DNA of 64,000 bases from Candidatus Tanganyikabacteria bacterium. GTDB lineage: Bacteria > Cyanobacteriota > Sericytochromatia > S15B-MN24 > VGJW01. This document shows, one piece after another, positions 7,847 to 59,934 of this stretch. Positions within the stretch are counted from its first letter, which is position 1. Each line of letters starts with the position of its first letter. The DNA lies in contig VGJY01000003.1 in assembly GCA_016867235.1 (NCBI GenBank), positions 406 to 64,405 on the forward strand, given 5' to 3'. The notes beneath the pieces are model-generated. The model did not search any database, had not been told where the DNA came from, and worked only from the letters and a program-made list of their open reading frames with translations. The translations under genes were made by a program, and so were the position numbers.

Positions 7847-7852
7847 TGACTC

Positions 7853-8155
7853 ATGCTACGGGAATCTGGGTACGACCATGATATGCCGAGCTTCCAAGTG
7901 CCGCCCCCCGGGGCCAATACGGGTTCGCTGCGCAACACGGGCAGCGCGAAAGGCTCCTCGGGATCGTCCGTCAAGGAATCCCAGCAGGCCAAGGCCGAAG
8001 CCAAGGCCGAGGCGATGGAGAACGCCAACTTCAGTTCGGCCGCCGATGCGCTCAAGCAGACGGCCGGAGCGCCGATGGAGAAGCCCCCGCCCACCGACCC
8101 TAACGGGCCAAATACACCGATCGTCGATAAGCGACCGAACGGCATCATCCCCTAG
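7853..8155 (+). CDS. Small low-complexity (K/A/E/S/P-rich) protein whose stop overlaps the start of the downstream synthase gene
   Basis: 100 aa ORF; alternative ATG at 7883. Stop TAG 8153-8155 overlaps GTG 8155-8157 of the next gene (TAGTG). No homology recognised; the start is uncertain. Confidence 0.4.
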   Translation: MLRESGYDHDMPSFQVPPPGANTGSLRNTGSAKGSSGSSVKESQQAKAEAKAEAMENANFSSAADALKQTAGAPMEKPPPTDPNGPNTPIVDKRPNGIIP

Positions 8156-25030: not shown

Positions 25031-25178
25031 TGTGACATAACGGCAGCCCGCACATCCTAGCAGGATTCAGGCAGAACCGACAGATACGGTTCGGTCGTCT
25101 TACAGATCACGCCTCCGCCTTGCGCTAGCGCACAGAATCATCCCCCTCATTCCGGGTAGAATCAGCCGAGACAGCCGC

Positions 25179-33572: not shown

Positions 33573-33695
33573 GCGAGATCCCTCTCTTGCCTCATCCTAG
33601 GCCGATCTGCGGACCCGGAGCGGTGGTCCGCCTCACATTCGCCTGCTCTCCGAGCCGAGAGGTAGGCCCTGGACCGGCCCGGGTAGGACCTACGT

Positions 33696-34670
33696 ATGGC
33701 GCTGAATCACGAACAGTTGATCAAGCTTCCCCAGTTCCAGGGCTTCACGCCCGACGAACTCGACGCGCTCTTCTCCATCGCCAAGCGTGTGGAAGCCAGC
33801 GCCGGCGAGCACATCATCAAGACCGGCGATGCCGCCGACTGCTTCTTCATCGTCGCGGGCGGCAGCCTCGAGGTGCTCGCCGACTCGGGCGGCGGCAAGC
33901 TGATGCCCGTCGCGCAGGTGGGCTCCGGCCAGCTCGTGGGCGAGATGCCGCTGATCTACAACCAGAAGCTGCGCCAGGCGGACATCGTCTGCGCCTCGGA
34001 CTGCAAGCTCCTGCGTTTCGACTACGCCGACTACGAGGAGATCGGCAAGCTGCACCCGACGGTGGCCAAGAAGTTCCGCTCCAACATCGGCAAGATAGTC
34101 GCCTCCCGGGTCTGGGCGGCGCAGGCCGCCACCGCCAAGCCCGGCGCGGGCAAGCCTGGAGCGCCGGCGGCTCCGGCCAGGCCGGTGACCTCCAAGTCGG
34201 CCAACCGCGACGCGATGAAGCGAGCGCAGGTCTTCGCGGGCCTGACCGACGAGGAGTACGAGAAGCTCGAACAGATCGCCCAGCCCTTCCCGGTCGAGCG
34301 CACGCACACGGTCTGCACGGCCGGCGATCCGGCCACGAGCTTCTTCCTCATCACGCGCGGCCAGGTCGAGGTGCAAATAGAGAAGTCCGGGCGCGCCTTC
34401 CCCCTGGCGCGGCTTGGCCCGGGCCAGTGCGTCGGCGAGATGGCGCTCATTTACAAGACCGACAAGCGCTCGGCCACGGTCGTCGCCGTGGACCAGACCC
34501 ACCTGCTGATGTGGGAATTCGAGGACTTCAACCGCCTGATCGCCCACGAGCAGAACATCGGCCGCAAGCTGCGCAACAACCTCGGCCGCGTCGCCGCCTC
34601 CCGCTCCTGGGCCCTGCCCGAAGCCGACGAGGCCAAGAAGATGCAGGCCCGCGGCTCGAGCGACGACTGA
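33696..34670 (+). CDS. Tandem cyclic-nucleotide-binding (cNMP/CAP-family effector) domain protein
   Basis: Two copies of the cNMP-binding signature (...GEMPLIYNQKLRQADIVCA..., ...GEMALIYKTDKRSATVVAV...). No output domain. Confidence 0.8.
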   Translation: MALNHEQLIKLPQFQGFTPDELDALFSIAKRVEASAGEHIIKTGDAADCFFIVAGGSLEVLADSGGGKLMPVAQVGSGQLVGEMPLIYNQKLRQADIVCASDCKLLRFDYADYEEIGKLHPTVAKKFRSNIGKIVASRVWAAQAATAKPGAGKPGAPAAPARPVTSKSANRDAMKRAQVFAGLTDEEYEKLEQIAQPFPVERTHTVCTAGDPATSFFLITRGQVEVQIEKSGRAFPLARLGPGQCVGEMALIYKTDKRSATVVAVDQTHLLMWEFEDFNRLIAHEQNIGRKLRNNLGRVAASRSWALPEADEAKKMQARGSSDD

Positions 34671-34704
34671 CGGCGGCCCTCCCCCGTCCGGGTAGAATGA
34701 CCTC

Positions 34705-35310
34705 GTGGACAGGACCGTCACCGAGGAACGCCTGCGAATCGGCTTCCTGCTCGACACGATCTGGTTCGAGATGAAGCACCAGCCCGTACGCTCCAAGGAG
34801 CAGACCCTCAAGCTGCTCGTCGACCTGCTGGCCGCGGAAGGGATCCCGTACGCCATCATCGGCGGCATGGCCCTGCAGGTCCACGTGGCGGATCCGCGGA
34901 CCACGGTGGACGTCGACGTGGCCCTCCTGGCGCGCGAGGACGTCCCGCGCACCGCGCTCGAGGCGCTGGGCTTCAAGCACACCGGCTCCTTCGAGCATTC
35001 CGAGAATTTCCGCAGCCCGGACGGGATCATGGTCCAGTTCAGCGGCGAGCCCGAGTGGCAGGGGGTGGTCCGCCGGGCCGAGATCCATGACGCGTTCGAC
35101 CGGCGCATCCCTTTCATCTCCCCCATCGACCTGGTGCGGGCCAAGCTGCGGGCGGCCGCGGATCCGGGTCGCCGCAGGTCCAAGCGGCTGATCGACGTGG
35201 CCGACATCACGACGCTTCTGGAGGAGCACGCCGACCTCGCGTCGCTCCTGACGGAGGACGAAATGGCGCGCATCGCCCGCCTGCCCGCCGAAATCGGCAG
35301 TCCCCTCTAG
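34705..35310 (+). CDS. Minimal nucleotidyltransferase-fold protein (putative)
   Basis: 201 aa. IIGGMALQVHVADPRTTVDVDVAL fits the GG...[DE]xD pol-beta-type NTase signature. Confidence 0.5.
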   Translation: MDRTVTEERLRIGFLLDTIWFEMKHQPVRSKEQTLKLLVDLLAAEGIPYAIIGGMALQVHVADPRTTVDVDVALLAREDVPRTALEALGFKHTGSFEHSENFRSPDGIMVQFSGEPEWQGVVRRAEIHDAFDRRIPFISPIDLVRAKLRAAADPGRRRSKRLIDVADITTLLEEHADLASLLTEDEMARIARLPAEIGSPL

Positions 35311-37711: not shown

Positions 37712-39085
37712 CTACATATGCGCGACGATCGTCAGGCCGGAGTAGTTGGCGCCGCCGACGATCGGCGTGTTCTTGAGATCGGTGTTGTGCCAGACCCGAT
37801 CGAACTCGCGCTCGCCAAGTTTCTGGTTCGGCCCGTCGATGCTGTCGTGGTAGATGATCTCGCCCTGCTCGTCGTTGTAGCCGATGACCGTCACGTAATG
37901 CGGCACGTCGAACTGCAGCATCACGATCACCGGATGCCCCTGGTCCACGGCCGACTTGAGGTGGTTGATCGTGCCGTTCTTGTAGGCGTCGACCTGCAGG
38001 CCCTTGGCCTTGAGGTAGTTGGTCACGGTGGTGTGGGTCGTGGCCATGTTGAACTTGTTGGACTCGTCGACCACCTGCTGGTAGGTCGGCGCCTGCTGGC
38101 CCTGGTGGTAGTTCAGGACCATCGACATCGCGGCCTGGGCGCAGGTGTTGTCGGGGACGTCCCGCGTGCCCTTCACCGCCGCCCCCTGGAAGAACCAGGG
38201 CACGTTGTCGATGATGCGCGTCCCGTCCGCGTGATCGGAGACCGTGTGCATGCCGCCGCCGGCGTTGCTCGCCACCGTGCGGTGCTCGGCCCCTCCGGCG
38301 CCGCCTCCCCCGCCGTTCCAGGAGAAGGTCTTGCCGTGGCCGTTGTCGTACTGGTAGCTACCGGAAGTGGTCTTCGCGATGCCGGCTCCCTCGTGCACGT
38401 CGATGCCCGACAGGCTCACCCCCGTGCCGCAGCCGGTGAGCGCCGCCGAGCCGATGACGCCGATCAGCGCCGCCGCGACCAGCTTGCCCTGGATGCGCAG
38501 GGCCTCGGCGATGTGGTTGGGCTTGGCCAGGCCGGCCTCCACCAGGATGTCGCCGATTTGCCGCTTGGTGAGCTTCTGGGTCTCGAGGGCGGACTTCAAC
38601 TGGTCGCGGGTGATGACCTTGGACGCGACCAGGATCTCGCCGAGCATGAACCGCACGGCCTTGGCCGAGTTGTAGCTGTGCTCGTGCTGCCAGTCGAGGA
38701 CCGCCGAGAGTTCGTCGGCCGAGATGAGGCCGAGGCGCAGCAGCACCTCGCCCAGCTTCTCGTTGGTCTTCTCCTGCTCGGCCAGCGCGGATTCGAGCTG
38801 GTGCTTGGTGACCTTCTTCGCACGGAGCAGCAGATCGCCCAGCTTGTGGCGCACCGCCGCGTTGTGCTCGTCGGGGGTCTCCCCGTCGTGATGGTGGTAA
38901 TGCAGGACGGCGTTGAGCTCCATCTCGGACACGATGCCCAGCCGCAGCAGGATCTCGCCGAGGCGCTCGTTGGTGGCGCTCTGCTCGGCCAGCGCGCGCT
39001 CGAGGTCGACGGGCGAGATGAACTCGCCCGCGACCAGCACTTCGCCGATCTTGGGCTTGGGAACGAGCGTCGCAGTCGATGCCAT
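37712..39085 (-). CDS. Multidomain protein: three MshEN-type (T2SSE_N-like, putative c-di-GMP-binding) domains plus TM helix plus Gly-rich linker plus C39/papain-like cysteine peptidase domain
   Basis: Six 24-residue motifs fitting xLGxxLLxxGxIxxxxLxxALxxQ (KIGEVLVAGEFISPVDLERALAEQ, RLGEILLRLGIVSEMELNAVL, KLGDLLLRAKKVTKHQLESALAEQ, ...). TM segment LVAAALIGVIGSAALTGCG. C-terminal domain with Cys (NTCAQAAMSMVLNYHQG) and His (HYVTVIGYNDEQGEIIYHDS). Confidence 0.7.
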   Translation of the reverse strand: MASTATLVPKPKIGEVLVAGEFISPVDLERALAEQSATNERLGEILLRLGIVSEMELNAVLHYHHHDGETPDEHNAAVRHKLGDLLLRAKKVTKHQLESALAEQEKTNEKLGEVLLRLGLISADELSAVLDWQHEHSYNSAKAVRFMLGEILVASKVITRDQLKSALETQKLTKRQIGDILVEAGLAKPNHIAEALRIQGKLVAAALIGVIGSAALTGCGTGVSLSGIDVHEGAGIAKTTSGSYQYDNGHGKTFSWNGGGGGAGGAEHRTVASNAGGGMHTVSDHADGTRIIDNVPWFFQGAAVKGTRDVPDNTCAQAAMSMVLNYHQGQQAPTYQQVVDESNKFNMATTHTTVTNYLKAKGLQVDAYKNGTINHLKSAVDQGHPVIVMLQFDVPHYVTVIGYNDEQGEIIYHDSIDGPNQKLGEREFDRVWHNTDLKNTPIVGGANYSGLTIVAHM

Positions 39086-39087
39086 GG

Positions 39088-40149
39088 TTATCTAGCGCCT
39101 CCAGGGAAGTACGCGAATCCGGATGTGGAACCCTGGGGGGCGGCAAGCGACGCGAACACGATGCCACGTGCGCCGGCTGCCGGATATATACCCCAGGCCA
39201 GGGCCCGCCCGCCGTCGGGCAAGAACTGTAAAGTCGGATTTACATTGTCGTCGCCGCCGCTGGTCAGCGCCTCGGGGGCCGACCAGGCGTCCCCCCGCGT
39301 GGCGAGGGCCAGTTGCAGCGGGTCGTCCGGGCCGCCGCGGCGCCAGCCGAAGGCGAGCGCGATGCGCCCGTTGCGATCGACGGCGAGCGCCGGATTGATG
39401 GCCTGCCCGGACAGGCCCAGCGACTTCGGTGCCGACCAGGCGCCCGAGGGGCCGCGGGAGACCTCGTAGAGTTGCGCCGAGCGGTGCGCCACGACATGGA
39501 GGCGCCCGTTGGCCGAGGCGATCGCGGGATCGCCCAGATGCGTGGCCGCCACCCGCGCCTCGTACCAGTTGTGGCCGTCGGCGCTCTCGGCGACCACCAG
39601 GCCGTCGGAACTGCGGTAGGTGAGCGCCCAGCCATGCGGCGTCGCCGTCACGGCCGGCTCGGAGACCATCGCGCCCGGCACGTTCAGGCGCTCGGGAGCG
39701 CTCCACCCCGTACCGGTCTGATCGCAGACGTACAACGCCCATGTGGGCACCTCGCGGTTGGAGGCGAAGATCACGTGGAAGCCCCGGCTGTCTGCAAACA
39801 ACGCCGGGTCGATGTCCGAGAGGGCGCCAGGCTGGACCGCCGCCGCGGGCGTCCAGGAGGCGCCGTCCCTGCTGGTCGCGAAGTAGATATGCTTGTTGCC
39901 GAGCTTCTCGGAACCGTACGCCACGCCCCAGGTGCCGTCGGCGGCCCGGTACAGCGACGGCGTCTTGGGGCCCTCGGGACCGAACGAGACGGCCGCCGCC
40001 TGCTGCCCGCCGACCGTCGGCAAGCTCGCGGGCGGCCTGGTGCCGGGTCCCTGACCGGGAGCGCCGGGCCCGAACGGCGCCTCGGCGCCGCAAGCCGACA
40101 GCGCCGCCGTGGCCACGGCGGCGATGAAGATGCGGCGAAACAGAGACAT
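39088..40149 (-). CDS. Lipoprotein with BNR/Asp-box beta-propeller (sialidase-like fold)
   Basis: Lipobox LSACG. Asp-box motifs SRDGASWT, SADGHNWY. Confidence 0.6.
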   Translation of the reverse strand: MSLFRRIFIAAVATAALSACGAEAPFGPGAPGQGPGTRPPASLPTVGGQQAAAVSFGPEGPKTPSLYRAADGTWGVAYGSEKLGNKHIYFATSRDGASWTPAAAVQPGALSDIDPALFADSRGFHVIFASNREVPTWALYVCDQTGTGWSAPERLNVPGAMVSEPAVTATPHGWALTYRSSDGLVVAESADGHNWYEARVAATHLGDPAIASANGRLHVVAHRSAQLYEVSRGPSGAWSAPKSLGLSGQAINPALAVDRNGRIALAFGWRRGGPDDPLQLALATRGDAWSAPEALTSGGDDNVNPTLQFLPDGGRALAWGIYPAAGARGIVFASLAAPQGSTSGFAYFPGGAR

Positions 40150-46062: not shown

Positions 46063-46701
46063 ATGCACTACGAGATAGGCCAAGAGGTAACACTGAGGCT
46101 CGGGGACCGGGTCCTCAAGGGCAAGATCACCGACATGACGGTCTCGTCGGCCGTGATGTCCTTTCCCGTGCCGTTCGAACTGCCGCCCTCCGGCATGGTG
46201 GTCTGGCCGGACGGCATGGTCGCCCGGGCCGACATGTCCCAGGCTTCGCCCTCGACTAACGTGATGATCAAGCTGCCCTTCCCCACCCGGTCCGAGGGCG
46301 CGCGCCTGCCGGCCCCGCTGCCCGCGGCCGAGAACAAGGCCACCGACCACCGCCGCACGGTGCGCATCGACGTGTCACTGCCCCTCACGGTCGCCGACTT
46401 CACCGGCACGCGGCGGCTGATGGACGCCAGGACGCTCAATATGTCCTCGGGCGGCGCCCTGGTGCTGTGCGAGTCCAACCTGATCGTGGGGCGGGACTAC
46501 ACCCTCAAGCTCGAACTGCTGGCCGAACTCATCGCGCTAAAGGCGCGGGTCGTACGCCGCCTCGGCCGCAACACCTACGCATTTCGCTTCCTGGCCGACT
46601 CGGACACGGGCCACGGCCTGATGCGCAAGGTCTTCATGCTGCTGCGCGGTTCCGAGTCCTCGTCCGGCAAGCGACCTTCATGGAATTTCAGGAGAGGCTA
46701 G
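46063..46701 (+). CDS. PilZ-domain protein (putative c-di-GMP receptor)
   Basis: RRTVRIDVSLPLTV (RxxxR) ... TLNMSSGGALV (D/NxSxGG). Confidence 0.6.
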   Translation: MHYEIGQEVTLRLGDRVLKGKITDMTVSSAVMSFPVPFELPPSGMVVWPDGMVARADMSQASPSTNVMIKLPFPTRSEGARLPAPLPAAENKATDHRRTVRIDVSLPLTVADFTGTRRLMDARTLNMSSGGALVLCESNLIVGRDYTLKLELLAELIALKARVVRRLGRNTYAFRFLADSDTGHGLMRKVFMLLRGSESSSGKRPSWNFRRG

Positions 46702-47501
46702 TCGCGGCGACCGGGGCCGGCGATCCCGAGACCGGCGCGGTCGAGACGCCGGCAAACGGGCAGCCCGAGGCCGAGCCCATGCGCAAGCCGGGCGAGATGC
46801 CGCTCACCGACCACCTCGAGGAACTGCGGTGGCGCATCATCAAGAGCGCGGGTGCCCTCGCCGCGGGCTTCGGCGTCTGCTTCGCGTTGCACCAGCAGAT
46901 CATCACCCTGCTGCTGGCCCCGGCTCACCGGGCCGCCATCGTGCACGGCAACCTCGTATTCACCGCGCCGGCCGAGTACTTCGTCGCCGCCCTCAAGGTG
47001 TCTTTCTTCGCCGGGCTCTTCCTCTCGCTGCCCGTGCTCCTCTACCAGGTCATGGCGTTCGTCGCCCCCGGCCTCACGAATCGGGAGCGGCGCTGGGTGG
47101 TGCCCATGTCCGTCGCGGCGGCGGTGCTCTTCGCGGCGGGCGCCGCGTTCAGCTATCTGGCGCTGCTGCCCATCGGCTTCAAGTTCCTGGTGGGCTTCGC
47201 CCCGCAGGACGTGGTGCAGCCCATGCTGTCCATCGGCGAGGTGCTGTCGTTTTCGACGCTCTTCCTCTTCGCCACCGGCGGAGTGTTCCAGTTGCCCCTG
47301 GTGTTGCTGGCCATGTCGCTGGTGGGCATCGTTTCCTCGGGGCAACTGGCTCGCTTCCGCCGGATGGCCATCGTCCTGGCCTTCCTCGCCGGTGCCCTGC
47401 TGTCGCCGTCTCCCGACGTGTTCAGCCAGGGCCTGCTCGCCGCGGCCTTGCTCGGCCTCTACGAGATCAGCATCGTGCTGATGAAGGTGGCGCGGCGCTG
47501 A
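46680..47501 (+). CDS. tatC: Twin-arginine translocase subunit TatC
   Basis: MPLTDHLEELRWRIIKS... six-TM TatC pattern. Overlaps the PilZ gene by 22 nt. Confidence 0.85.
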   Translation: MEFQERLVAATGAGDPETGAVETPANGQPEAEPMRKPGEMPLTDHLEELRWRIIKSAGALAAGFGVCFALHQQIITLLLAPAHRAAIVHGNLVFTAPAEYFVAALKVSFFAGLFLSLPVLLYQVMAFVAPGLTNRERRWVVPMSVAAAVLFAAGAAFSYLALLPIGFKFLVGFAPQDVVQPMLSIGEVLSFSTLFLFATGGVFQLPLVLLAMSLVGIVSSGQLARFRRMAIVLAFLAGALLSPSPDVFSQGLLAAALLGLYEISIVLMKVARR

Positions 47502-47507
47502 TCCGAG

Positions 47508-47525
47508 GCCGGCACGGAGGCCGGC
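47508..47525. terminator. GC hairpin GCCGGC-ACGGAG-GCCGGC 7 nt after the tatC stop (same family as 41193..41210)
   Basis: Identical 18-mer to 41193..41210. Confidence 0.35.
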
Positions 47526-47531
47526 CCCACC

Positions 47532-47726
47532 CTATTCGACCACCCGCAGGCGGCGGATCGGTTCGGCCACGCCGTGCCGGGACACGATCTTGAAGATCAC
47601 GGCCGGCGCCAGCAGGCGCATGCAGTCCATGACCCCCTCGGTGATGACGCTGACCTTGCCGCTGGTGCGAACCTCGAGGGGAATCGCCTCGATGATCGCG
47701 TCCACTGCCTTCTGTTCGTGCCGCAT
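47532..47726 (-). CDS. Small hypothetical protein (64 aa) at the end of the mglBA/GGDEF gene string
   Basis: MRHEQKAVDAIIEAIPLEVRTSGKVSVITEGVMDCMRLLAPAVIFKIVSRHGVAEPIRRLRVVE. GGAGGG RBS about 9 nt upstream of the internal ATG. Confidence 0.4.
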   Translation of the reverse strand: MRHEQKAVDAIIEAIPLEVRTSGKVSVITEGVMDCMRLLAPAVIFKIVSRHGVAEPIRRLRVVE

Positions 47727-47837
47727 CCTCTCAACCCTCCTGCAATCGAGGATAGGTGGGCGGACGCGGCGCTGTGAACCGGGATCGGGCCATCTCCCGA
47801 CAACCTTCACGGGTGACGCGGGTCGCCCCCGTCGCGA

Positions 47838-48611
47838 TCACTTGCCGCGGTCGGTGGATCCCCTGAGCATGTCGGTCACGCGCCGGACCGTGGGCCGGAA
47901 CAGGTCGGCCAGCGTGTAAGGCTGGGGCGGTGCCTCCTTGAGGCCCTCGACGTCCCTGGGATCGAGGGTGCCCGTGCCGCGTGGCCGCACCAGGTGCGGC
48001 GGCGGGAACAGGCGCGCCAGCACCGGATCGTTCTCGAAATGCACGTGCACCGACGTGAGGTGAAACACCTGCCCGCGCATCTTCTCGACCGAGATGCCGG
48101 CGAGCTTGTCGAACGCCTCCTCGGGCGGGCCCATCTCGCACTCGGTGAGCGCCTCCTCGACGTAGCGCAGGGCTTCCCATGCCGATTCGTACTGGCCGGA
48201 CGCCACGGCGGCGGCGCGGGCGGCGTCCCGGCTCTCGGCGATGCGGGCGGCGACCTGCCTGGTGAACAGCTTCTCCTGCATCGGCAGGTTCTGGAAGAGC
48301 ACCGCCTCTGAAAGCTTGCCTTCGTTGAGGCGTATGGCGCGCTTGAGGATGGCCATGCGCGGCCGCACCTCCAGGACCGTGGCCTTGGCTCGCGCCAGTT
48401 CCTCGTGGAGTTCGCGGATGCGCGCCCGGCCTTGCTCGGCGGTGCGGTTCGGCAACCGGCCCGTCCCGGCGCTCGCCCGCAGGCCCGGCGAGGCCTTGAA
48501 CTGGTCCGTGCCGAACGCCTTCAGGTCCTCCGGCTGCAGCGGCGCCGTAGGGGAAGCGGTGATCTTGTCGGTCCCTTGGCCTGCCTTCTGGGGCCGACGG
48601 GGAAAGGGCAT
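47838..48611 (-). CDS. Hypothetical protein, paralogue B of a tandem pair (about 258 aa)
   Basis: Shares the C-terminal motif ...EKMRGQVFHLTSVHVHFENDPVLARLFPPP... with the upstream paralogue (...EKIRGLVHPLAMLHVTFEGDEMLSALVPPP...). Start taken at the internal ATG (MPFPRRPQKAG). Confidence 0.5.
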   Translation of the reverse strand: MPFPRRPQKAGQGTDKITASPTAPLQPEDLKAFGTDQFKASPGLRASAGTGRLPNRTAEQGRARIRELHEELARAKATVLEVRPRMAILKRAIRLNEGKLSEAVLFQNLPMQEKLFTRQVAARIAESRDAARAAAVASGQYESAWEALRYVEEALTECEMGPPEEAFDKLAGISVEKMRGQVFHLTSVHVHFENDPVLARLFPPPHLVRPRGTGTLDPRDVEGLKEAPPQPYTLADLFRPTVRRVTDMLRGSTDRGK

Positions 48612-48645
48612 TCCGGCTTGCCCCCTTTGCTCGCTCGTCTCTCCC

Positions 48646-49428
48646 CTACTTACCCGACGGCGGCGGGGGGTATAACAGCGCCCTGACCGCCCGCCTGACG
48701 AACCTCCTGGCCGCCTTGGCCACGTCCTGCGGGTTGTTGAGCACGTTCGCCAGGGCGTCCGTGAGGGGGCCCGTGAGGGGCCGGGTGCCGGATGCCTGCG
48801 GCAGCCCATCGTCCGGCGCGACTAGCTTCCGGGTCTCGGTCTTGCGCGGCGGCGGCACCAGGGCCGAGAGCATCTCGTCGCCCTCGAACGTCACGTGCAG
48901 CATCGCCAGCGGGTGGACCAGACCGCGGATCTTCTCGATGCGCAGGTCGCGAAACGCCTCGGTGCCGATGGTCTGCGCGGAAACGGCCGCCTGCTCGACC
49001 GCCTTCTCCAGCGCGGCCATCTGCTCGGCGGCCGCATTGAACTGCGCCACCGCCACCTCGACGCGCTGCCGGAACTGCGTGGCGTCCACCAGGTGCAGGG
49101 CGAGGGCCCGCACGTAGTCCTTCTCGTCGGCCGAGCAACCGGCGAAGAGCTGGGCCTCCGGCACCTCGCCGGCCAGCAGGCCGAGCGCCAGGCGCAACGC
49201 GAACATCGGCCCCTGCAGGTCCTCGAGCAGCACCTTCGAACGCGCGATCTCGGCGTAGATGTCCCCCAGGCGCTTGGCGGCATCCGCGTCCACCGCCGAC
49301 CCCTGCTCGGCCCGCACCCAGGCCGACAGGCTGACCTCGTCGCTCCCCTTGGGACTGCCGAGGCTCAGGTCGCTCGTCCGGGGCGTGTTGAGCTTCCCCG
49401 TGTCGCCCCGCTGGAACTCGTCTCGCAA
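48646..49428 (-). CDS. Hypothetical protein, paralogue A of a tandem pair (260 aa)
   Basis: See paralogue B. Lies 4 nt downstream of the GGDEF gene stop. Confidence 0.5.
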   Translation of the reverse strand: MRDEFQRGDTGKLNTPRTSDLSLGSPKGSDEVSLSAWVRAEQGSAVDADAAKRLGDIYAEIARSKVLLEDLQGPMFALRLALGLLAGEVPEAQLFAGCSADEKDYVRALALHLVDATQFRQRVEVAVAQFNAAAEQMAALEKAVEQAAVSAQTIGTEAFRDLRIEKIRGLVHPLAMLHVTFEGDEMLSALVPPPRKTETRKLVAPDDGLPQASGTRPLTGPLTDALANVLNNPQDVAKAARRFVRRAVRALLYPPPPSGK

Positions 49429-49432
49429 TGGC

Positions 49433-51406
49433 CTATTCCAGCTGCTCGCGCGGCGGCACGCCGACCTGGTTGCGGCCGTTCTGCTTGGCGTGGTACAGCG
49501 CCTCGTCGGCCACGTGGATGAGCGCCTCCGTGGACGGCCCGTGCACCGGGTAGGTCGAGAAGCCGAAGCTCGCCGTGATGGTGCGGTCGGGCAGCAGTTC
49601 CTGGTCGGCGAACGGAAACTCCGCGACCCCCAGGCGCAGCTTCTCGGCGACCTGCCAGGCGCCTTCGTAGCCGGTCTCGGGCAGGATCACGGCGAATTCC
49701 TCGCCGCCGAAGCGCGCCACGATGTCCACCTTGCGCGTCTGGTCGCGCAGGAAGGCCGCGGTTTGCTTGAGCACGGTATCCCCCGCGAGGTGGCCGAGGT
49801 AGTCGTTGCAGATCTTGAAGTGGTCGATATCCAGGATGATAAGCGAGAAAGGCCTGTTGTAGCGATAGCCCTTCTGCTGCTCCTCGTGGAGGCGCTGGTT
49901 GAAGTAGCGGCGGTTGAAGACGCCGGTCAGGCCGTCGGTGATGGATCGTTCGTGCTCGCGCTGCCACTGGATGGCGTTGAACACCGCCGACGCCGTGTGC
50001 GCCACGAGGGTCTCGACCATGTCCCGCCCGGTCGTCTCGGTCTCGCTCTCGGTAGCCACGACGACCAGGCCCAGGCAGGCCTGCTGCACCTTGAGCGGGA
50101 AGAGCACGACCTTCCCGGCCTCGGAGAACGGCGTGCCCTCGAGGGCCTCGCGCGGCAGATCCAGCGAGGGCGGGTAGCCGGTCTTGTCCAGGAAGTAGAG
50201 CCACTGGTCGGCCGGCTTGAAGCCCTGGGTGCTCGACCCGGCCGCGAACGTCCAGCCTTCGATGCCGGCGAGGTAGACGTCTACCCAGTGGACGGGCTGC
50301 ATGAAGTGGGGCAGGTGCGAGACCAGTTCCTTGCAGGCGACGTGCATGTCCAGGGTCTTGCCGACCTCGCGGGTGGCCTTGGTCAGGTCGCGGAGCTTGT
50401 CGACCAGGGCCGCGACGCGGTTGCGCTCCTGGTGGGCCTCGAAGTACAGCCGGCTGGTCAGCAGCGCGCCGGTGGCGGCCTGGGCGAGATCGGCCAGGGT
50501 CTCGAGTTCCGCCGACGTGAAGAGGCGAGGTTGCCGGCTGCCCACCAGGAGAACGCCCAGTTCTTCCCGCTGCGTGAGGAGCGGCACGGCCATCGCGGCC
50601 AGGAGGCCGTGCTTGCCCAGGCCGGCCGGCGGTTCGCCGAGGGCCGCCAGGTTGGGGATGACCATCGGCTTGCCCTCTTCGAGCACGTCGGCCAGGAAGC
50701 CCGCCTCGGAGAGGGGGACCGTCGGTGCGACCTCCTGGATGCCGCCCTTGCGCAGGATGTCCCGCAGCGAGCCCTGCTTGGGCGGATACACAGCCAGATC
50801 CTCCACCAGGCGCAGGCCCCCGGGCTCGCGGTGGTAGAGGCAGGCGTACTGGGCGCCGGTGGCCTGGGCCACGATGGTGCAGATGTTCTGGGAGAGCTGG
50901 TTGAGGTCGTAGGCGTTGTTGATGTTGAGGGTGAGAAGTTGCAGCGCGTGGAGCTTCCGGGCGACCTCGCCCATCATCAGGTCGGCGCGGATGGCCTTGC
51001 GGCCGAAGGCGCTCGCCGCCAGGCCCGCGGCCACCATGTGGGCCGCCGTCTCCCACTCGCCGGCCACCACCTCGGGCGCGAAGAAGATCCCGCCCAGCGG
51101 CCGCGGCACCGGCAGGGCCACCGGCAGCCACATACGCCCGTCCTCGTCGGCCAGGGGGGCCAGGTCCCGGTCGCCGTAGGACAGCAGCAGCCCGGCGAAG
51201 TGCGCCTCCACCTCGGGCGAGCCGGCAAACGGCCGCCATGGCCGGGAGCCGTCCTCGCGGAAGGCGATGGCGCAATCGGTCTTGCCCAGGCCCTCGCCCC
51301 AGATCGCCGCCGCCCCGCGCGCGAACTCCGCGAGATCCTCCGCCTCCCGCCACAGCTTGGCGATCGGCTCCAGGACCCGACGGGTCAGCGCCTCGGATAG
51401 AGGCAT
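49433..51406 (-). CDS. Diguanylate cyclase with tandem N-terminal GAF domains (GAF-GAF-GGDEF)
   Basis: 657 aa. Active-site RFGGEEF, upstream RYNRPFSLIILDIDHFK. Two GAF-like regions. Confidence 0.85.
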   Translation of the reverse strand: MPLSEALTRRVLEPIAKLWREAEDLAEFARGAAAIWGEGLGKTDCAIAFREDGSRPWRPFAGSPEVEAHFAGLLLSYGDRDLAPLADEDGRMWLPVALPVPRPLGGIFFAPEVVAGEWETAAHMVAAGLAASAFGRKAIRADLMMGEVARKLHALQLLTLNINNAYDLNQLSQNICTIVAQATGAQYACLYHREPGGLRLVEDLAVYPPKQGSLRDILRKGGIQEVAPTVPLSEAGFLADVLEEGKPMVIPNLAALGEPPAGLGKHGLLAAMAVPLLTQREELGVLLVGSRQPRLFTSAELETLADLAQAATGALLTSRLYFEAHQERNRVAALVDKLRDLTKATREVGKTLDMHVACKELVSHLPHFMQPVHWVDVYLAGIEGWTFAAGSSTQGFKPADQWLYFLDKTGYPPSLDLPREALEGTPFSEAGKVVLFPLKVQQACLGLVVVATESETETTGRDMVETLVAHTASAVFNAIQWQREHERSITDGLTGVFNRRYFNQRLHEEQQKGYRYNRPFSLIILDIDHFKICNDYLGHLAGDTVLKQTAAFLRDQTRKVDIVARFGGEEFAVILPETGYEGAWQVAEKLRLGVAEFPFADQELLPDRTITASFGFSTYPVHGPSTEALIHVADEALYHAKQNGRNQVGVPPREQLE

Positions 51407-51431
51407 TTGCCCTCTTTACCTGCTCCCGCGG

Positions 51432-52013
51432 CTACTTGTTGAAGGTCTCCAGCACCAGTTGCGAAAGAGACCGCAATGTATCGGATACCCCCAAACCGGT
51501 CACTGCCACCGCTTCATGCGCCGGAACGGCGTTTTTGTTGAGTTCCCGTTCGAGATCGACGACCGGCACGGCACCCGGAATGTCCCGCTTGTTGTACTGC
51601 ATCACCCACGGCAGGCCGCCGAGGGAGAGGCTGTAGTCCTCGAGGTTCGCGGCGAGATCCTCCATGCTCTCCAGGTTCGCGCTCCAGCGCGCCGGGGAGG
51701 AATCGGCCACGAAGACCAGGCCGTCCACGCCGGAGAGGATGGACTTGCGCGAGTTGACGTACTGGACCTGGCCGGGGACGGTGTAGAGCTGGAAGCGCAC
51801 GTCGAACCCCTGGATCTTGCCCACCTCCAGCGGCATCAGGTCGAAGAAGATGGTCCGCTCCGTCTCGGTCGCCAGGTTCAGCAGATCGCCGCGCATGTCC
51901 GGGTCGATGGAGTGGTGGAGCCATTCGAGGTTGGTCGTCTTGCCGCAGAACCCCGGCCCGTAGTACACGAGCTTGCAGAGGATTTCTTTCTTCCCGAAGT
52001 TGATGATCGGCAC
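51432..52013 (-). CDS. mglA: MglA, Ras-like polarity/motility GTPase
   Basis: Near-collinear match to Myxococcus/Thermus MglA (INFGKKEILCKLVYYGPGFCGKTTNL ... TETERTIFFDLMP ... LYTVPGQVQY ... VMQYNKRDIP). Confidence 0.9.
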   Translation of the reverse strand: MPIINFGKKEILCKLVYYGPGFCGKTTNLEWLHHSIDPDMRGDLLNLATETERTIFFDLMPLEVGKIQGFDVRFQLYTVPGQVQYVNSRKSILSGVDGLVFVADSSPARWSANLESMEDLAANLEDYSLSLGGLPWVMQYNKRDIPGAVPVVDLERELNKNAVPAHEAVAVTGLGVSDTLRSLSQLVLETFNK

Positions 52014-52124
52014 GTCGGCCGCCTACCGAAGGCCGCGCGGCCGAAACGGCTGCGGCGGACGACACCGGCGCCTCATGCGCCCCAAGATCTCTCCCGAGCC
52101 GAGACCCAACACAGCAAATCTTCC

Positions 52125-52622
52125 CTAGAAGTTCCCCAGCGCGTCGTCGATGCTCGAGGCATCGAGCAGGCCGCCCTGCTGGACGGGCGCGCGCTGCTGC
52201 CGGGCCGACGACATCAGCATCGCCAGGCGCCCCGCGGCCGTCTTGAGCGGGACGTCCACCTGCGATGCCAGGCGTTCCGACGGGAAGGTCGCCACGAGCA
52301 GATCGTCGGTCTCGAGCAGGATCAGGGCCGTGTAGCTGTGCGGCCCCTTCTGCATCAGCTCGCGGATGGCGTACTCGCCCATGAGGCCCGAGAGGGTCTT
52401 GAGGCTCTTGAAGATGCCGCCGACCAGGGCGCCCACCGCCGGGTGCGCGGTCCGGCCGCCGCCCTTGGCCGCGAGCGTCAGGCCGCTGCGCTCGACCAGG
52501 GCCGCCGAATCGGCGCCGCCCTCGCGCAGCAGGCCGTCCAGCGCGCCGTCGAGTTCGGCTTGCAGTTCGGCCGTGACGACCAGGTTGGTCAACAGGTCGT
52601 GGGGAGTGCCTTGAGCGTCCAC
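52125..52622 (-). CDS. mglB: MglB, Roadblock/LC7-domain GAP of MglA
   Basis: 165 aa with roadblock-like core (SAALVERSGLTLAAKG ... ALILLETDDLLVATF). Immediately upstream of mglA in the canonical mglBA order. Confidence 0.7.
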   Translation of the reverse strand: MDAQGTPHDLLTNLVVTAELQAELDGALDGLLREGGADSAALVERSGLTLAAKGGGRTAHPAVGALVGGIFKSLKTLSGLMGEYAIRELMQKGPHSYTALILLETDDLLVATFPSERLASQVDVPLKTAAGRLAMLMSSARQQRAPVQQGGLLDASSIDDALGNF

Positions 52623-52901: not shown

Positions 52902-54014
52902 TTGAAGCAAATGTGGATCTGGGAGCGACCAGAGTGGCCGACCTTCCGGTGGGACGCGGCCGCGCTTTCGGGCCCGCTCGGCAGCGCACGCCTTGCGCAG
53001 GGTAAGATGCTCGGGGCCATGCGGTTGTTCGACCCTGCCTCGAGCGCGGAGGCCGCTGCCGAGATCCTGGTCGAGGATGGTTTTGCCACCAGCGCCATCG
53101 AAGGCGAGCACCTCGATCCGGCCCGCTTGCGCTCGTCGGTGGCGCGGCACCTTGGCCTGCCGGCCGGCGGCTTGCCCTCCCCGTCGCCGGAGGGGGAGGG
53201 CCTGATCCAGGTGCTGCTGGACGCGACCGGGCGGCACGACGAGCCGCTGACGATCTCGCGCCTTTGCGCCTGGCAGGCCGCGCTGTTTCCCGGCGGGCGC
53301 TCGGGCCTCGCGCGGATCCGCGCGGGGGAGCTGCGCGGCGAATCGCCGATGCGCGTGGTGTCCGGCCGGCCGGAGCGCGAGCGCATCCATTTCGAGGCGC
53401 CGCCTCGCGCCGCCCTGGCATCGGAGTTGTCGCGCTTCCTTGATTGGTTCGGCCAGCGGGATCCGGGCAGGGATGGCCTTGTCCGGGCCGGGCTCGCGCA
53501 CCTGTGGTTCGTCACGATCCACCCGTTCGAGGACGGGAATGGCCGCCTCGCCAGGGCGATCACCGACATGGCATTGTCGCAGGACGAGGGGCGGCCGTTC
53601 CGCGCCTTCAGTCTCTCGGCGCAGATCTTGCGCGAGCGGGACGCCTACTACGAGATCCTCGAGCGCACGCAGCGTTCGGATCTCGAAGTCACGGCCTGGC
53701 TGGGATGGTTCCTCGCACAGGTGGCATCGGCTGCCGAGGCATCCGAAGCGACGATTGCCAGGGTCCTGGGAAAGGCGCGCTTCTGGCTCAAGCATCAGGG
53801 CACGCCGCTCAACGACCGGCAACGTAAGGTCCTGAACCGTCTTCTGGACGCAGGCCCGGGCGGCTTCGCCGGGGGCCTCAACACGCGCAAGTACGTGGGC
53901 ATGACGCGGATCAGCCGCGCCACGGCTTACCGCGAATTGACCGACATGGTTGCCAAGGGCTGCCTGCGGCAAGCGGGCGCAGGCCGATCGGTGAAATACG
54001 AGGCGGCCTGGTGA
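52902..54014 (+). CDS. fic: Fic-family AMPylase, class II (N-terminal inhibitory helix), with C-terminal wHTH-like domain
   Basis: Canonical Fic motif HPFEDGNGRLAR. Inhibitory motif TSAIEG ((S/T)xxxE(G/N)) about 115 residues upstream. Confidence 0.85.
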   Translation: MKQMWIWERPEWPTFRWDAAALSGPLGSARLAQGKMLGAMRLFDPASSAEAAAEILVEDGFATSAIEGEHLDPARLRSSVARHLGLPAGGLPSPSPEGEGLIQVLLDATGRHDEPLTISRLCAWQAALFPGGRSGLARIRAGELRGESPMRVVSGRPERERIHFEAPPRAALASELSRFLDWFGQRDPGRDGLVRAGLAHLWFVTIHPFEDGNGRLARAITDMALSQDEGRPFRAFSLSAQILRERDAYYEILERTQRSDLEVTAWLGWFLAQVASAAEASEATIARVLGKARFWLKHQGTPLNDRQRKVLNRLLDAGPGGFAGGLNTRKYVGMTRISRATAYRELTDMVAKGCLRQAGAGRSVKYEAAW

Positions 54015-54135
54015 GCGGCCTTTCCCTCACAAATCTGGACGAGGTTATCCAGACTGGCCGGGCGTTTTCCCGCCTCTTTCCCGCCAGGCTACGCGATCTG
54101 TTAATCCCCGGGCCTCTGGAGAGCCAGTGTAGCTG

Positions 54136-55191
54136 CTATTGGGCTGTTTGCGCGGCGTACGCGAAGACCTGCGACGCCTGCGAGACGGCGCCCAGGTCCA
54201 CCAGGCTGTCGTCGAGAGCCTTGACGGTCTCCTCGCCGCCCAGGCCGAACACGTTGGCGCTCGTCCTGGCCAGCTGCAGGACCCCGAACGCCGCTGTGGC
54301 ATACAGGCCGAGCGTGTTGCCCCACTCGGCGGTCGATTGCGTGACGTTGCCGGGCTGCTCGCCCTTGCCCAGCGCCTCCATGGCCACCCTGGACTCCTTG
54401 AAGAAGCTCTCGGCCCGGTCGGGGTCCGGGTTCGACATCCCGAGCCACTTCATCACCGGCTTGACGTACTTGAAGTTGCGGACCAGGTTGTCGAGGCTCT
54501 TTTGCACCTTCTGCGCGGCGCTCTGCATCTGGTAGGTCACCACGAAGGGCCGGGTGGCCAGATCGGCGGCCGCCCGCTGCACGTCGGGGGTGGCGTACTC
54601 GTTGACCGCCCAGTTGCCGTCGGCGGCCTTGTAACTCTGGTGCAGGCCGCGCATGCGCTTGAAGAGGATGACGGCTTCGGCGGTGGCCGCGTCGAACTGC
54701 CCGGTGGCGTACGACAGGTAGCCCAGGCGCACCAGGTGCCGCTGCAGTTCGTGCACCTGCCCGCCCATGCCGGGCAGGCTGGGCCCGACCGTGCCGCTGC
54801 GCGAATAGCCCTTGACCTCCTGCGTGAAGTTCCAGACGTTGTCGAGATCGACCTGCAGGCGGTACCGCGCCGCCGTCGCCCGCCAGTCGCCCAGTTGCAG
54901 CACGCGGAACGCCCGGGCGAACGCCGCCGCGATGCCGGCGAAGAGCGCCTTGATGGCCTCGAGCACGCCGCTGCCGGGCGACCCCTGTATCGGCTGCGCC
55001 GGGGGTCCCCCGTAGGCCGGAGGCGGCCCGTAGGGCGGAGGCGATCCGTAGGCCGGCTGGCCGAAGCCGGGGCCGGCAACCGGGGGGTTCCAGCCTGGGG
55101 TCGGCGCGGGGTAGTAAGCCGGCGCCTGGCTGGCACCCCGGGCTTGACCCGGGAGTGACCAACTATTGGAAGCGGGGACTCCTAACAGCAC
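54136..55191 (-). CDS. Pro/Gly-rich protein with peptidoglycan-binding (PG_binding_1-like) domain
   Basis: N-terminal PPPYGPPPAYGGPP repeats. VHELQRHLVRLGYLSYATGQFDAATAEAVILFKRMRGL matches the PGBD1 pattern. Confidence 0.55.
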   Translation of the reverse strand: MLLGVPASNSWSLPGQARGASQAPAYYPAPTPGWNPPVAGPGFGQPAYGSPPPYGPPPAYGGPPAQPIQGSPGSGVLEAIKALFAGIAAAFARAFRVLQLGDWRATAARYRLQVDLDNVWNFTQEVKGYSRSGTVGPSLPGMGGQVHELQRHLVRLGYLSYATGQFDAATAEAVILFKRMRGLHQSYKAADGNWAVNEYATPDVQRAAADLATRPFVVTYQMQSAAQKVQKSLDNLVRNFKYVKPVMKWLGMSNPDPDRAESFFKESRVAMEALGKGEQPGNVTQSTAEWGNTLGLYATAAFGVLQLARTSANVFGLGGEETVKALDDSLVDLGAVSQASQVFAYAAQTAQ

Positions 55192-58835: not shown

Positions 58836-58858
58836 GCCGGCGCCCGAGGGCGCCGGCC
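58836..58858. terminator. GC-rich hairpin between convergent ppdK and the TPR gene (bidirectional terminator candidate)
   Basis: GCCGGCGCCC-GAG-GGCGCCGGC, about 9-10 bp stem, overlapping the TPR gene stop. Weak U-tract. Confidence 0.4.
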
Positions 58859-59886
58859 TACTTCTTTTCGATGATCGGCACCGAGTAAGTGGCGCCGGGG
58901 ATGAACTTGCGGATGACCTGCGGCTTGTCCCTGTCGTCGAGTTCCTTCTTGACGAACTGGAAGGCGATCGACGCCGAGGCGTTGGTGGGATCCAGCTGCA
59001 GGCTGCGGTCGAAGCGGTCGTAGGCCTCCACCAGGCGCTTGCCGTCCACCAGTTTCTTGCCCTCCCAGTAGAGGTCGGCCGACGCCGCGATCTTCGCCTC
59101 GCCCAGCATCGTCTGGCTCTCGAGATCGCCGGGCTTGAGCCGGACGGCCTCTTCGAGGAGGTCCACGGCGGCCTCGTTGCGCCCCTCCCGGAGCATCGTG
59201 CGCGATTCGGTCATGAGCTCCTGGTAACGCTTCTCGAGGATGCGCTTCGGATCGTTCTCGGCCGCCTCGCGCTCGCGATTCTGCGCGGCTTCCAGCTTCT
59301 CCACCTCCTGGAGCTTGCCCAGCGAGAACGTGCTGTTGCGCTTGGCCACGTTGAACATCTTGCGGGCGTTTTCCCAGTCCTTCAGCTCGATGAAGTACAG
59401 GCCCCAGGTGTTGTACAGGGCATCGCGCAGGTCGGCGCCGATCCCCAGCTTGCCCGTGCGATCGAGTTGCTTCTTGGTCGCCTCCACATCGTGCTCGTTT
59501 TGCAGGAGCGCGATGGCCAGGAGCAGGTTGTTCTGCACGTCCTGGGGCTCGTCGGCGACCAAGCGCTGGTAGACCATTGTTCCCTCGATGCCGGTGAAGG
59601 TCGAGAAGATGGCGATGCGGCGATTCTGGGCGCTGTCCTTGCGGGCTAGCGCCTGGCCGGCCTCGTGGACGAGCGGCGGGAAGACGTTCTGGTAGCAGTC
59701 GGCCAGCAGCCCCCACGCCCGCGGCTCGTTGGGGAAGGTCTTGGTGAATTTTTCCAGGATGGGGATCGCGTCCTGGTACTGCCCCGCCTCCATGTAGCCT
59801 CGCGCCTTGGCGAGTTCGCCGGCCATCGCCGCCGTCGGAACGGTCAGGGCGATCGCCAGCGCGAGGAAGAGCGCGCGAAACTTCAT
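58858..59886 (-). CDS. Secreted TPR-repeat protein
   Basis: Signal peptide MKFRALFLALAIALTVPTAAMA. TPR-like helical repeats. Confidence 0.7.
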   Translation of the reverse strand: MKFRALFLALAIALTVPTAAMAGELAKARGYMEAGQYQDAIPILEKFTKTFPNEPRAWGLLADCYQNVFPPLVHEAGQALARKDSAQNRRIAIFSTFTGIEGTMVYQRLVADEPQDVQNNLLLAIALLQNEHDVEATKKQLDRTGKLGIGADLRDALYNTWGLYFIELKDWENARKMFNVAKRNSTFSLGKLQEVEKLEAAQNREREAAENDPKRILEKRYQELMTESRTMLREGRNEAAVDLLEEAVRLKPGDLESQTMLGEAKIAASADLYWEGKKLVDGKRLVEAYDRFDRSLQLDPTNASASIAFQFVKKELDDRDKPQVIRKFIPGATYSVPIIEKK

Positions 59887-59934
59887 TTGAGCGGATCCTC
59901 TTCATGAGGCCGGCAGGGACGCCGGCCCCACATT

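Follow-up and report, generated by a model that had tools for sequence, protein, structure and literature searches.

Gene content and layout of the string

The window analysed here is a stretch of 64,000 nucleotides from a Sericytochromatia assembly (GCA_016867235.1, contig VGJY01000003.1), and it carries on its minus strand, between positions 47532 and 52622, a string of six genes encoding an MglB-like Roadblock/LC7 protein, the Ras-like GTPase MglA, a diguanylate cyclase (DGC), two related proteins designated X1 and X2, and a small conserved protein. The string is real, conserved and lineage-restricted, the basis being purely genomic and the organisms uncultured, and it is read here, at roughly even odds (a probability of about 0.5), as a conserved Sericytochromatia-restricted operon for a small-GTPase-gated cyclic di-GMP (c-di-GMP) signalling module. 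All six minus-strand open reading frames (ORFs) reported in an initial annotation, made from the letters alone, were recovered at the coordinates it gave, and the gene identities it had assigned proved correct. The string and its nearest neighbours are arranged as follows.

52125-52622, minus strand: mglB-like Roadblock/LC7 gene (165 aa), first in the string, with a GTG start after AAGGAGG
52014-52124, minus strand: mglB-mglA spacer of 111 nt (between-gene coordinates)
51432-52013, minus strand: mglA, gene of a group-1-like Ras-like GTPase (193 aa), recognised by PDB match and motifs
49433-51406, minus strand: DGC gene (657 aa), with Pfam GGDEF and GAF
48646-49428, minus strand: X1, gene of a new helical family (260 aa), beginning 4 nt past the DGC stop
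47838-48611, minus strand: X2, gene of a diverged X1 paralogue (257 aa), starting at Met67 of a 323-aa ORF, with AAGGGGG ahead of the start
47532-47726, minus strand: small conserved protein gene (64 aa), with its ATG at 47726 and a GGAGGG Shine-Dalgarno sequence
47507-47526, strandless: GC-rich hairpin GGCCGGC/GCCGGCC, read from the sequence, between the convergent small-protein gene and tatC
46063-46701, plus strand: PilZ-domain protein gene (212 aa; Pfam PilZ), an opposite-strand neighbour
about 46680-47501, plus strand: tatC, overlapping pilZ by 22 nt

From mglB to the small gene, the spacers along the string measured 111, 25, 4, 34 and 111 nt. The first four agree with the gaps listed in the initial annotation, but its fifth value of 27 nt fits a 92-aa ORF with a GTG start and not the 64-aa protein, whose ATG start is indicated by three aligned orthologues (64-70 aa) that share a conserved N-terminus from Met1 and carry their extra residues at the C-terminus. 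A consensus scan requiring a T-run found no terminator-like sites between the string genes, and the sole promoter-like site that consensus scanning found within the string was a sigma-70-like one at 47778-47749, ahead of the small gene. The hairpin at 47507-47526 is a possible bidirectional terminator with no U-tract, and was not flagged in the terminator scan, which demands a T-run. The mglB-mglA spacer is 111 nt long only in this genome, measuring 3, 8 and 9 nt in relatives; a structured RNA within it was rejected because the fold was no stabler than that of shuffled sequence (z = 0.35), and the search for Rfam families and repeats in the string yielded nothing notable. The G+C content of the window was ~69%, and the G+C content at third codon positions (GC3) of the six ORFs ranged from 0.82 to 0.93. 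This high GC3, together with the retention of protein sequences and gene order in independent metagenomic contigs, indicates that the string is more than a chance arrangement.

Conservation of the string across lineages

The string and its variants were found in three lineages, the loci being designated here by L numbers or by accession.

Window clade, mglB-mglA-DGC-X1-X2-small: complete at L001, L019 and ERZ1305449; partial at L004, L003 and L018 (truncated contigs)
Window clade variant, with a short Mpo1-like gene ahead of the small gene: L003, L019 and ERZ1305449
Candidatus Tanganyikabacteria, mglB-mglA-like-DGC-X: L006 and L007
Third lineage, mglB-DGC-small, without mglA and without X: L020 and L021 (GCA_027331485.1)

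Whether relatives keep the arrangement had been named as a way in which the initial annotation could fail; mglBA-DGC-X was found to recur across deep Sericytochromatia lineages. Six independent contig sets of the window clade carry the string, one of which (ERZ1305449) has different flanks, with an SLT gene on one side and integrase, FlhB-like and bacterial microcompartment (BMC) genes on the other. The string is intact between these unrelated flanks, indicating that it holds together independently of local synteny. In Candidatus Tanganyikabacteria, the DGC is 49% identical, a single X is present, and the mglA/DGC and DGC/X pairs each overlap by 4 bp. Gene overlaps of 4 bp are typical of translational coupling. 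In the third lineage, the DGC is 57% identical with an intact GGEEF motif, about 100 nt stand at the position of mglA, and a repeat-containing gap of ~390 nt stands at the position of X. There, L020:4539-7677 and L021 (ERZ27233565) carry mglB-DGC-small between PPDK and tatC, and within the ~390-nt gap after the DGC gene lies a duplicated stretch, visible in one reading frame as repetition of the peptide 'RGRGFSLALCARAV' and suggestive of a repeat element where the deletion lies.

The DGC-X1 junction was always the tightest, ranging from -4 to 37 nt in every called locus, and mglB and the DGC gene were present in all three lineages. We infer that mglB and the DGC gene form an invariant core, to which mglA and X, present or absent together, are a co-inherited and co-lost add-on. 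The same distribution could also be explained by a working pair of Roadblock protein and cyclase, in which the MglB-like protein and X would be regulatory subunits of the DGC (e.g., a dimerisation or localisation factor) and MglA an optional modulator. The facts that only mglB and the DGC gene occur in all three lineages, that X always lies physically closest to the DGC gene within that narrow range, and that Roadblock proteins partner sensor kinases in conservons (PMC4316618) are in keeping with such a pair, but X was lost from a lineage that kept the DGC, indicating that the DGC does not require X, and the best relatives of the MglB-like protein are true MglB GTPase-activating proteins (GAPs), and this explanation is considered quite improbable.

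The flanks of the string are also syntenic in most metagenome-assembled genomes (MAGs), with genes for a TPR protein, PPDK and its regulator on the upstream side, and on the downstream side tatC, pilZ, hpf, spoVS, ymdB, rny and recA. It is therefore conceivable, although unlikely, that inherited synteny alone is being observed, and that mglBA, the DGC, X and the small protein act in separate pathways encoded in a slowly rearranging region. Such an origin would account for the conservation of both flanks across the same MAGs, for the ~100-nt spacers inside the string, for the promoter-like site ahead of the small gene and for the variable gene content (the Mpo1-like insertion, and Fic and peptidoglycan-binding genes found upstream in the window only); it accounts less readily for the 4-bp overlap and the 0-nt and 4-nt junctions among mglA, DGC and X, for the persistence of the string with both flanks replaced in ERZ1305449, for the joint disappearance of mglA and X while the neighbouring genes remain, or for the lack of terminator-like sites between the genes.

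The encoded proteins and the neighbouring genes

The window MglA aligned with MglA of Myxococcus xanthus (6hjh) without gaps, residues 1-191 on 1-191 (E = 3.4e-66, 53% identity), bearing out the near-collinearity originally claimed; further PDB matches were 6h17 and 5ymx (E about 3e-66) and Thermus 3t12 (E = 2.7e-60). The P-loop GPGFCGKT, Arg53-Thr54 including the intrinsic arginine finger (Arg53), PGQ with the catalytic Gln82, and NKRD are in register with the M. xanthus protein, and P-loop, Arg53 and Gln82-type residues are features of group 1 MglA as defined by Wuichet and Søgaard-Andersen (PMC4316618). Judged by these residues, the window MglA appears to be a group-1-type GTPase with an intact catalytic apparatus. 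The MglA-like GTPase of Candidatus Tanganyikabacteria (L006:7480-8061), which is 33% identical to it, has the P-loop GPVGSGKA, in which Ala replaces the Mg-coordinating Ser/Thr, and keeps Arg53, Thr54 and Gln82; this switch may be evolving fast or altered in function.

Immediately upstream of mglA, mglB was found in the window, in L001, in L006/L007 and in L019. Its product scored just below the Pfam threshold for Robl_LC7 (22.3 bits against a gathering score of 23; E = 1.1e-4), and the L001 orthologue is recorded with Robl_LC7. A single-sequence PDB search gave weak matches to MglB (E about 0.03). With a three-orthologue profile, M. xanthus MglB ranked first (6hjm, E = 1.4e-6; range to 2.9e-6), and Thermus thermophilus MglB (E about 1e-3) ranked ahead of LAMTOR and dynein Roadblock proteins. 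The score against NF052242, the Thermus-type equivalog of NCBIfam, was 23.2 bits, below the cut-off of 200. The product is probably a distant MglB-like Roadblock protein and not an equivalog of Thermus MglB. In ERZ1305449, two tandem 163-aa genes stand ahead of mglA, which may represent a duplicated MglB and possibly a heterodimeric Roadblock pair.

The DGC contains a GGDEF domain (Pfam, E = 5.5e-44, residues 499-642; TIGR00254, E = 2.2e-50) and a GAF domain (Pfam, E = 1.3e-14). The GGEEF active site and the RKVD I-site five residues upstream (RKVD-IVARF-GGEEF) are kept in four lineages and in L020, in agreement with the GGEEF diguanylate cyclase originally proposed and pointing to a putative cytoplasmic cyclase in which both the active site (GGEEF) and the product-inhibition site (RxxD) are intact. 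Of the GAF-GAF sensor claimed for this protein, only one GAF domain is visible to Pfam (residues 167-314), the second not being found by sequence: the segments flanking the GAF domain had no Pfam match up to E 10 and no PDB match, and when the N-terminal and middle segments were compared with the GAF segment by hhalign, the matches were in register but not significant. At the level of predicted fold, the second module was present and a third, N-terminal one was added. An AlphaFold2 (AF2) model from nine orthologues, with a pLDDT score of 77.5, showed alpha/beta modules at residues 5-118, 168-297 and 354-460, with GGDEF last; modules 168-297 and 354-460 follow the order alpha-beta-beta-alpha...beta-beta-alpha, module 5-118 is a reduced version, and each is trailed by a helix of 28-52 residues. 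The sensor is thus predicted to consist of three GAF-like modules on long helices in a phytochrome-like layout.

The best Foldseek match of the DGC model was IsPadC (PAS-GAF-PHY-coiled coil-GGDEF; 5llw), with E = 3.8e-27 over about 770 alignment columns and TM-scores of only 0.28-0.38, and phytochrome PAS-GAF-PHY cores matched with E about 1e-13 (TM-scores 0.2-0.4, root-mean-square deviation about 20 Å). Like IsPadC, the DGC is predicted to have three sensor modules on a helical spine feeding a GGDEF domain. Unlike IsPadC, it had no match to PAS_2 or PHY in Pfam up to E 10, and no bilin-binding Cys, DIP or PRxSF tongue motif was seen on inspection of the four-lineage DGC alignment. Because these phytochrome sequence families and chromophore motifs are absent, the possibility that the DGC is a phytochrome was ruled out, and the similarity is read as one of layout and not as evidence of a photoreceptor. 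Relatives of the sensor region numbered 11, all belonging to one orthologous group, and scanning of JGI metagenome contigs with the DGC sensor returned Tanganyika contigs and one short fragment only.

X1 and X2 are 27% identical over 172 aa (BLASTP, E = 2e-18), and both contain the motif EK[IM]RG..h.L..hHV.FE.D..L..L.PPP. The two paralogues with a common C-terminal motif described in the initial annotation were confirmed, and their joint alignment shares motifs over the full length, the homology extending along the whole proteins. Neither matched Pfam or NCBIfam up to E 10. A profile search with the X family against 1.84 billion representative proteins recovered 108 relatives at E < 1e-3, 35 of them at E < 1e-10, and among 64 members the only known domain was Prok-RING_1, in 2 of the 64. 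The 64-member profile found nothing beyond coiled-coil noise among PDB sequences (best E = 0.06). The AF2 model of X1 had a confident helical core (residues 45-190) with disordered ends, and the comparison of the X model with the PDB by Foldseek likewise gave coiled-coil noise (best E = 0.43). Members of the family, with which X1 and X2 align over their full length, share an invariant Asp and a 'TGxL' motif in their disordered N-terminus, a near-invariant Gln in the helical core (residue 129 in X1) and the C-terminal motif [KR]x[RK]G..[YH]PL.N[LF]H..F...P.L..LFPPP. X appears to represent a rare, mostly helical and previously undescribed family without a relative in Pfam, NCBIfam or the PDB. 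For the paralogues, the suggested remote-homology check was run with Pfam, NCBIfam, a PDB profile and Foldseek, and for the small protein with Pfam and the PDB; it identified no relative by these means.

Members of the X family that carry an organism name came only from Candidatus Sericytochromatia, Candidatus Tanganyikabacteria and 'Cyanobacteria bacterium RYN_339', the last with at least three X paralogues, and three more were labelled 'compost metagenome' only. Rarity (108 representatives in 1.84 billion, without a Pfam match) and taxonomic restriction rule out a common housekeeping family, the outcome that had been named as fatal to the original proposal. X1, X2 and the DGC are identical to entries of a Candidatus Sericytochromatia MAG (FJZ01_00905, FJZ01_00910). 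X1 orthologues are 62-84% identical and always lie directly after the DGC gene, and nine X2 orthologues show 54-100% identity. The single X of Candidatus Tanganyikabacteria is nearer to X1 (34% identity, E = 5.5e-24) than to X2, and the X1/X2 duplication appears to be specific to the window clade. Scans of GTDB contigs with the X1/X2 alignment and of JGI metagenome contigs with X returned nothing; pattern scanning with the diverse alignment of 64 members was precluded by its degeneracy.

An X subgroup with the motif HVEKLRGQLYPLINLH, at L005:2387-6151 and L011:7070-10822, lies divergent from a conserved gene pair that encodes a protein of 348-425 aa consisting only of the C-terminal domain of FHIPEP (FlhA) and a T2SSE/PilB-type ATPase of 573-580 aa, a pairing unfamiliar to the authors. 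At L017, an X-family member lies between PG_binding_1 proteins. One further X-family locus lies near an FlhB-like gene. A 375-aa protein beside the FlhB-like gene of L006 was considered as an X member and rejected, being a TPR protein.

Orthologues of the small protein in L001 and L003 are 73-81% identical, and the protein has no relative in Pfam or the PDB. Its gene is set apart by 111 nt in the window and by the intervening Mpo1-like gene in L003, L019 and ERZ1305449, and it is found in the L020 lineage and absent from the Tanganyikabacteria version. The gap, the insertion and this absence indicate that the small protein, which had been counted as a full member of the string, is only loosely attached and not a core member. 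At L018:3547-3731, in the closest relative (GCA_040960315.1), the match to the small gene is split into two parts that lie in different frames, and the gene was called at only 40 aa, which reflects a frameshift (pseudogene) or else a faulty assembly.

The adjoining PilZ protein (Pfam, E = 5.7e-10) has RxxxR (R97-R101) and NxSxxG (N126-S128-G131) motifs that are invariant in five orthologues, and is a canonical PilZ protein and a candidate c-di-GMP receptor. Together with tatC, its gene forms the tail of a plus-strand recA-rny-ymdB-spoVS-hpf-pilZ-tatC array converging on the string. The adjacency and the 22-nt overlap with tatC were as first described, but the gene, being on the plus strand, is not transcriptionally downstream, and membership of the operon is ruled out by the opposite strand. 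PilZ is convergent with the string in L001, L003, L018, L019, L006/L007 and L020 (where the gene, cut at the contig end, was identified by tblastn), the exception being the ERZ1305449 contig. The coupling of pilZ and tatC is kept in all three lineages.

Several other genes around the string were recorded. At 52902-55191 of the window, a Fic/DUF4172 gene (plus strand) and a 351-aa PG_binding_1 gene (minus strand) lie between mglB and the PPDK-regulator gene; this insertion was seen only in the window genome, the PPDK regulator being directly divergent from mglB in L019 and L006. A TPR protein of ~340-375 aa, convergent with PPDK, is encoded in synteny upstream of the string in all three lineages (window 58858-59901, minus strand; L006:2094-3221; L020:426-1433); the MglA of Bdellovibrio binds a TPR protein, Bd2492 (PMC3983030). 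About 9 kb from the string, and conserved in Candidatus Tanganyikabacteria, is a gene whose product combines DUF2949 and a Peptidase_C39-like domain with a weak match (E = 3e-5) to PATAN/DUF4388 (window 37712-39091, minus strand; L006:17884-19206); PATAN domains are reported to occur in the neighbourhood of mglB and mglA (PMC4316618). Elsewhere, the window encodes a 1346-aa adenylate/guanylate cyclase with an AAA_16 (STAND-like) domain (3815-7855, minus strand), a protein with two cNMP-binding domains (33687-34670, plus strand) and an AbiEii-like nucleotidyltransferase toxin (34696-35310, plus strand). An 825-aa ORF without a Pfam match (25041-27518, plus strand) lies over three antisense ORFs (25100-27265, minus strand; GC3 0.93-0.96), and the coding strand there is ambiguous by composition alone.

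A candidate GTPase-gated c-di-GMP module

In the proposed module, the string proteins would act as one complex or pathway. The DGC dimer would integrate a ligand signal via its GAF modules, MglB, as a GAP, would set the GTP/GDP state of MglA, and X would serve as an adaptor or effector that bridges MglA-GTP to the DGC and relays the state of the GTPase, such that c-di-GMP synthesis would be confined to the places or times at which MglA carries GTP. Receptors of c-di-GMP, for example the conserved neighbouring PilZ protein, would then read the signal. A more specific version, which is put forward tentatively and as less likely than not, is that X1 and X2 found a novel class of proteins that bind MglA, as effector, co-GAP or exchange factor, physically coupling the GTP state of MglA to a phytochrome-like, ligand-sensing DGC.

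Several observations weigh against a GTPase-gated module. All of its interactions are inferred from gene order, and the signal could run either from the GTPase to the cyclase or from the cyclase and c-di-GMP to the GTPase cycle. The synteny extending from PPDK to recA weakens, without removing, the argument from conservation, as part of it could be inherited order, and mglA and X were lost together in one event only, with both genes possibly sitting elsewhere in that genome. In the window itself, the string is interrupted by the 111-nt mglB-mglA spacer and by the 111-nt gap before the small gene, and the MglA-like protein of Candidatus Tanganyikabacteria is only 33% identical, with an atypical GKA P-loop. 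Moreover, other X paralogues occur in unrelated contexts, beside the FHIPEP-C/T2SSE ATPase pair, NHL-repeat proteins, peptidoglycan-binding proteins and a GAF-containing Ser/Thr kinase, with MglA missing from the surrounding 10 kb wherever flanks were available. At five Sericytochromatia/cyanobacterial MAG loci detected in GTDB contigs with an alignment of a second X subgroup, no MglA, MglB or string-type DGC was found within 10 kb, indicating that the X family is not a dedicated partner of MglA.

In the adjacency of mglB and mglA, the collinearity of MglA and the Roadblock nature of MglB, the string resembles the MglA/MglB switch of M. xanthus and T. thermophilus. The initial annotation accordingly named it a polarity/motility module. 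In a Myxococcus-type front-rear module, MglA-GTP would mark a pole and activate gliding or type IV pili, with the DGC, X1/X2 and the small protein as polarity factors like RomR, RomX, RomY or MglC. Such a role would be in line with the 53% identity of MglA to its M. xanthus counterpart and its group-1 catalytic residues, with the presence of MglB, with the canonical PilZ protein adjoining the string, with the effect of c-di-GMP on MglA/MglB polarity in M. xanthus (PMC11255338), and with the position of one X subgroup beside a PilB-type T2SSE ATPase. However, a comparison of ~45 window proteins with Pfam revealed no pilus, gliding, flagellar or Frz family, so the label, which derives solely from MglAB homology, found no motility machinery to go with it and is unproven. 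In contrast with M. xanthus, neither motility genes nor RomR, RomX, RomY or MglC were detected among the window proteins scanned, RomX and RomY not having been compared directly by sequence. X and the small protein resemble no solved or Pfam-modelled protein, MglA-family proteins have non-motility roles elsewhere, in Bdellovibrio predation (PMC3983030) and in conservons (PMC4316618), and one lineage has mglB and the DGC gene without mglA. A polarity or motility module is on this evidence rather unlikely.

Compared with known systems, the GTPase-gated reading has both precedents and differences. Unlike the MglAB pairs of M. xanthus and Thermus, the pair here shares an operon with a DGC whose active site is intact and with a new protein family; the neighbourhoods of group 1 MglA are variable, and group 1 was not listed in Cyanobacteria by Wuichet and Søgaard-Andersen (PMC4316618). 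The actinobacterial conservon consists of the sensor kinase CvnA, the Roadblock protein CvnB, the DUF742 protein CvnC and the MglA-like GTPase CvnD (PMC4316618), and the string similarly combines a Roadblock protein, an MglA-family GTPase, a signalling enzyme and an accessory protein in one conserved operon. The enzyme here, however, is a GAF-GGDEF cyclase in place of a histidine kinase, the GTPase is group-1-like in place of group 2, the proteins are cytoplasmic and not membrane-anchored, and X, having no Pfam match, is unrelated to DUF742; Pfam detected neither a histidine kinase nor DUF742 in the string, and the likeness is one of layout only.

Group 1 Rup clusters, which also occur in Cyanobacteria, comprise Rup, a coiled-coil protein, an OmpA-domain membrane protein, and a DGC/phosphodiesterase (PDE) or histidine kinase (PMC4316618). 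The string shares with them the coupling of a small Ras-like GTPase to a c-di-GMP enzyme and to a cytoplasmic protein with predicted coiled coils, the comparison of X with its Rup-associated counterpart being by description only. It differs in that the GTPase is an MglA that supplies the catalytic Gln and Arg itself and is partnered by MglB, in that no OmpA-type membrane protein is encoded, and in that the DGC has no PDE domain. As their defining components are absent, the string falls outside both the conservon and the Rup classes. Given that group 1 Rup clusters and conservons constitute a bioinformatic precedent (PMC4316618), the kind of system is not new. The specific arrangement was claimed to be undescribed, and indeed neither an mglBA-DGC operon nor the X family was found described in the searched literature.

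Functional ties that connect polarity proteins of the MglA type with GGDEF proteins or c-di-GMP are likewise known from the MglA-Bd2492(TPR)-RomR-CdgA hub of Bdellovibrio (PMC3983030) and from M. xanthus DmxA (transmembrane-GAFx2-GGDEF), which is needed for correct MglA/MglB/RomR polarity (PMC11255338). The string DGC resembles DmxA, which has an I-site and dimerises through long helices, in its predicted GAF-GAF-GGDEF layout. In both of those organisms the genes are unlinked and no X-like adaptor is known; CdgA, unlike the string DGC, is a degenerate receptor and not an enzyme, and DmxA is membrane-bound and recruited by the divisome.

Cross-talk between MglA and c-di-GMP has been known only via unlinked genes in Myxococcus and Bdellovibrio. 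A GTPase, its Roadblock partner, a DGC and an adaptor-like X in one translationally coupled operon would constitute a minimal four-protein set that could be reconstituted in vitro, allowing one to ask whether a bacterial Ras-like GTPase gates second-messenger synthesis. The present findings also widen the range of group-1-type MglA/MglB to the sister classes of Cyanobacteria that lack photosynthesis, add a protein family without a relative in Pfam, NCBIfam or the PDB, and flag a phytochrome-like three-module sensor. If X were shown to couple MglA-GTP to DGC activity, the interest would be much greater: the string would then represent a hard-wired bacterial pathway from a G protein to a second-messenger cyclase, with a logic like that of eukaryotic G alpha and adenylate cyclase, and the wider X family would be Sericytochromatia-specific adaptors for varied signalling enzymes and secretion or motility ATPases.

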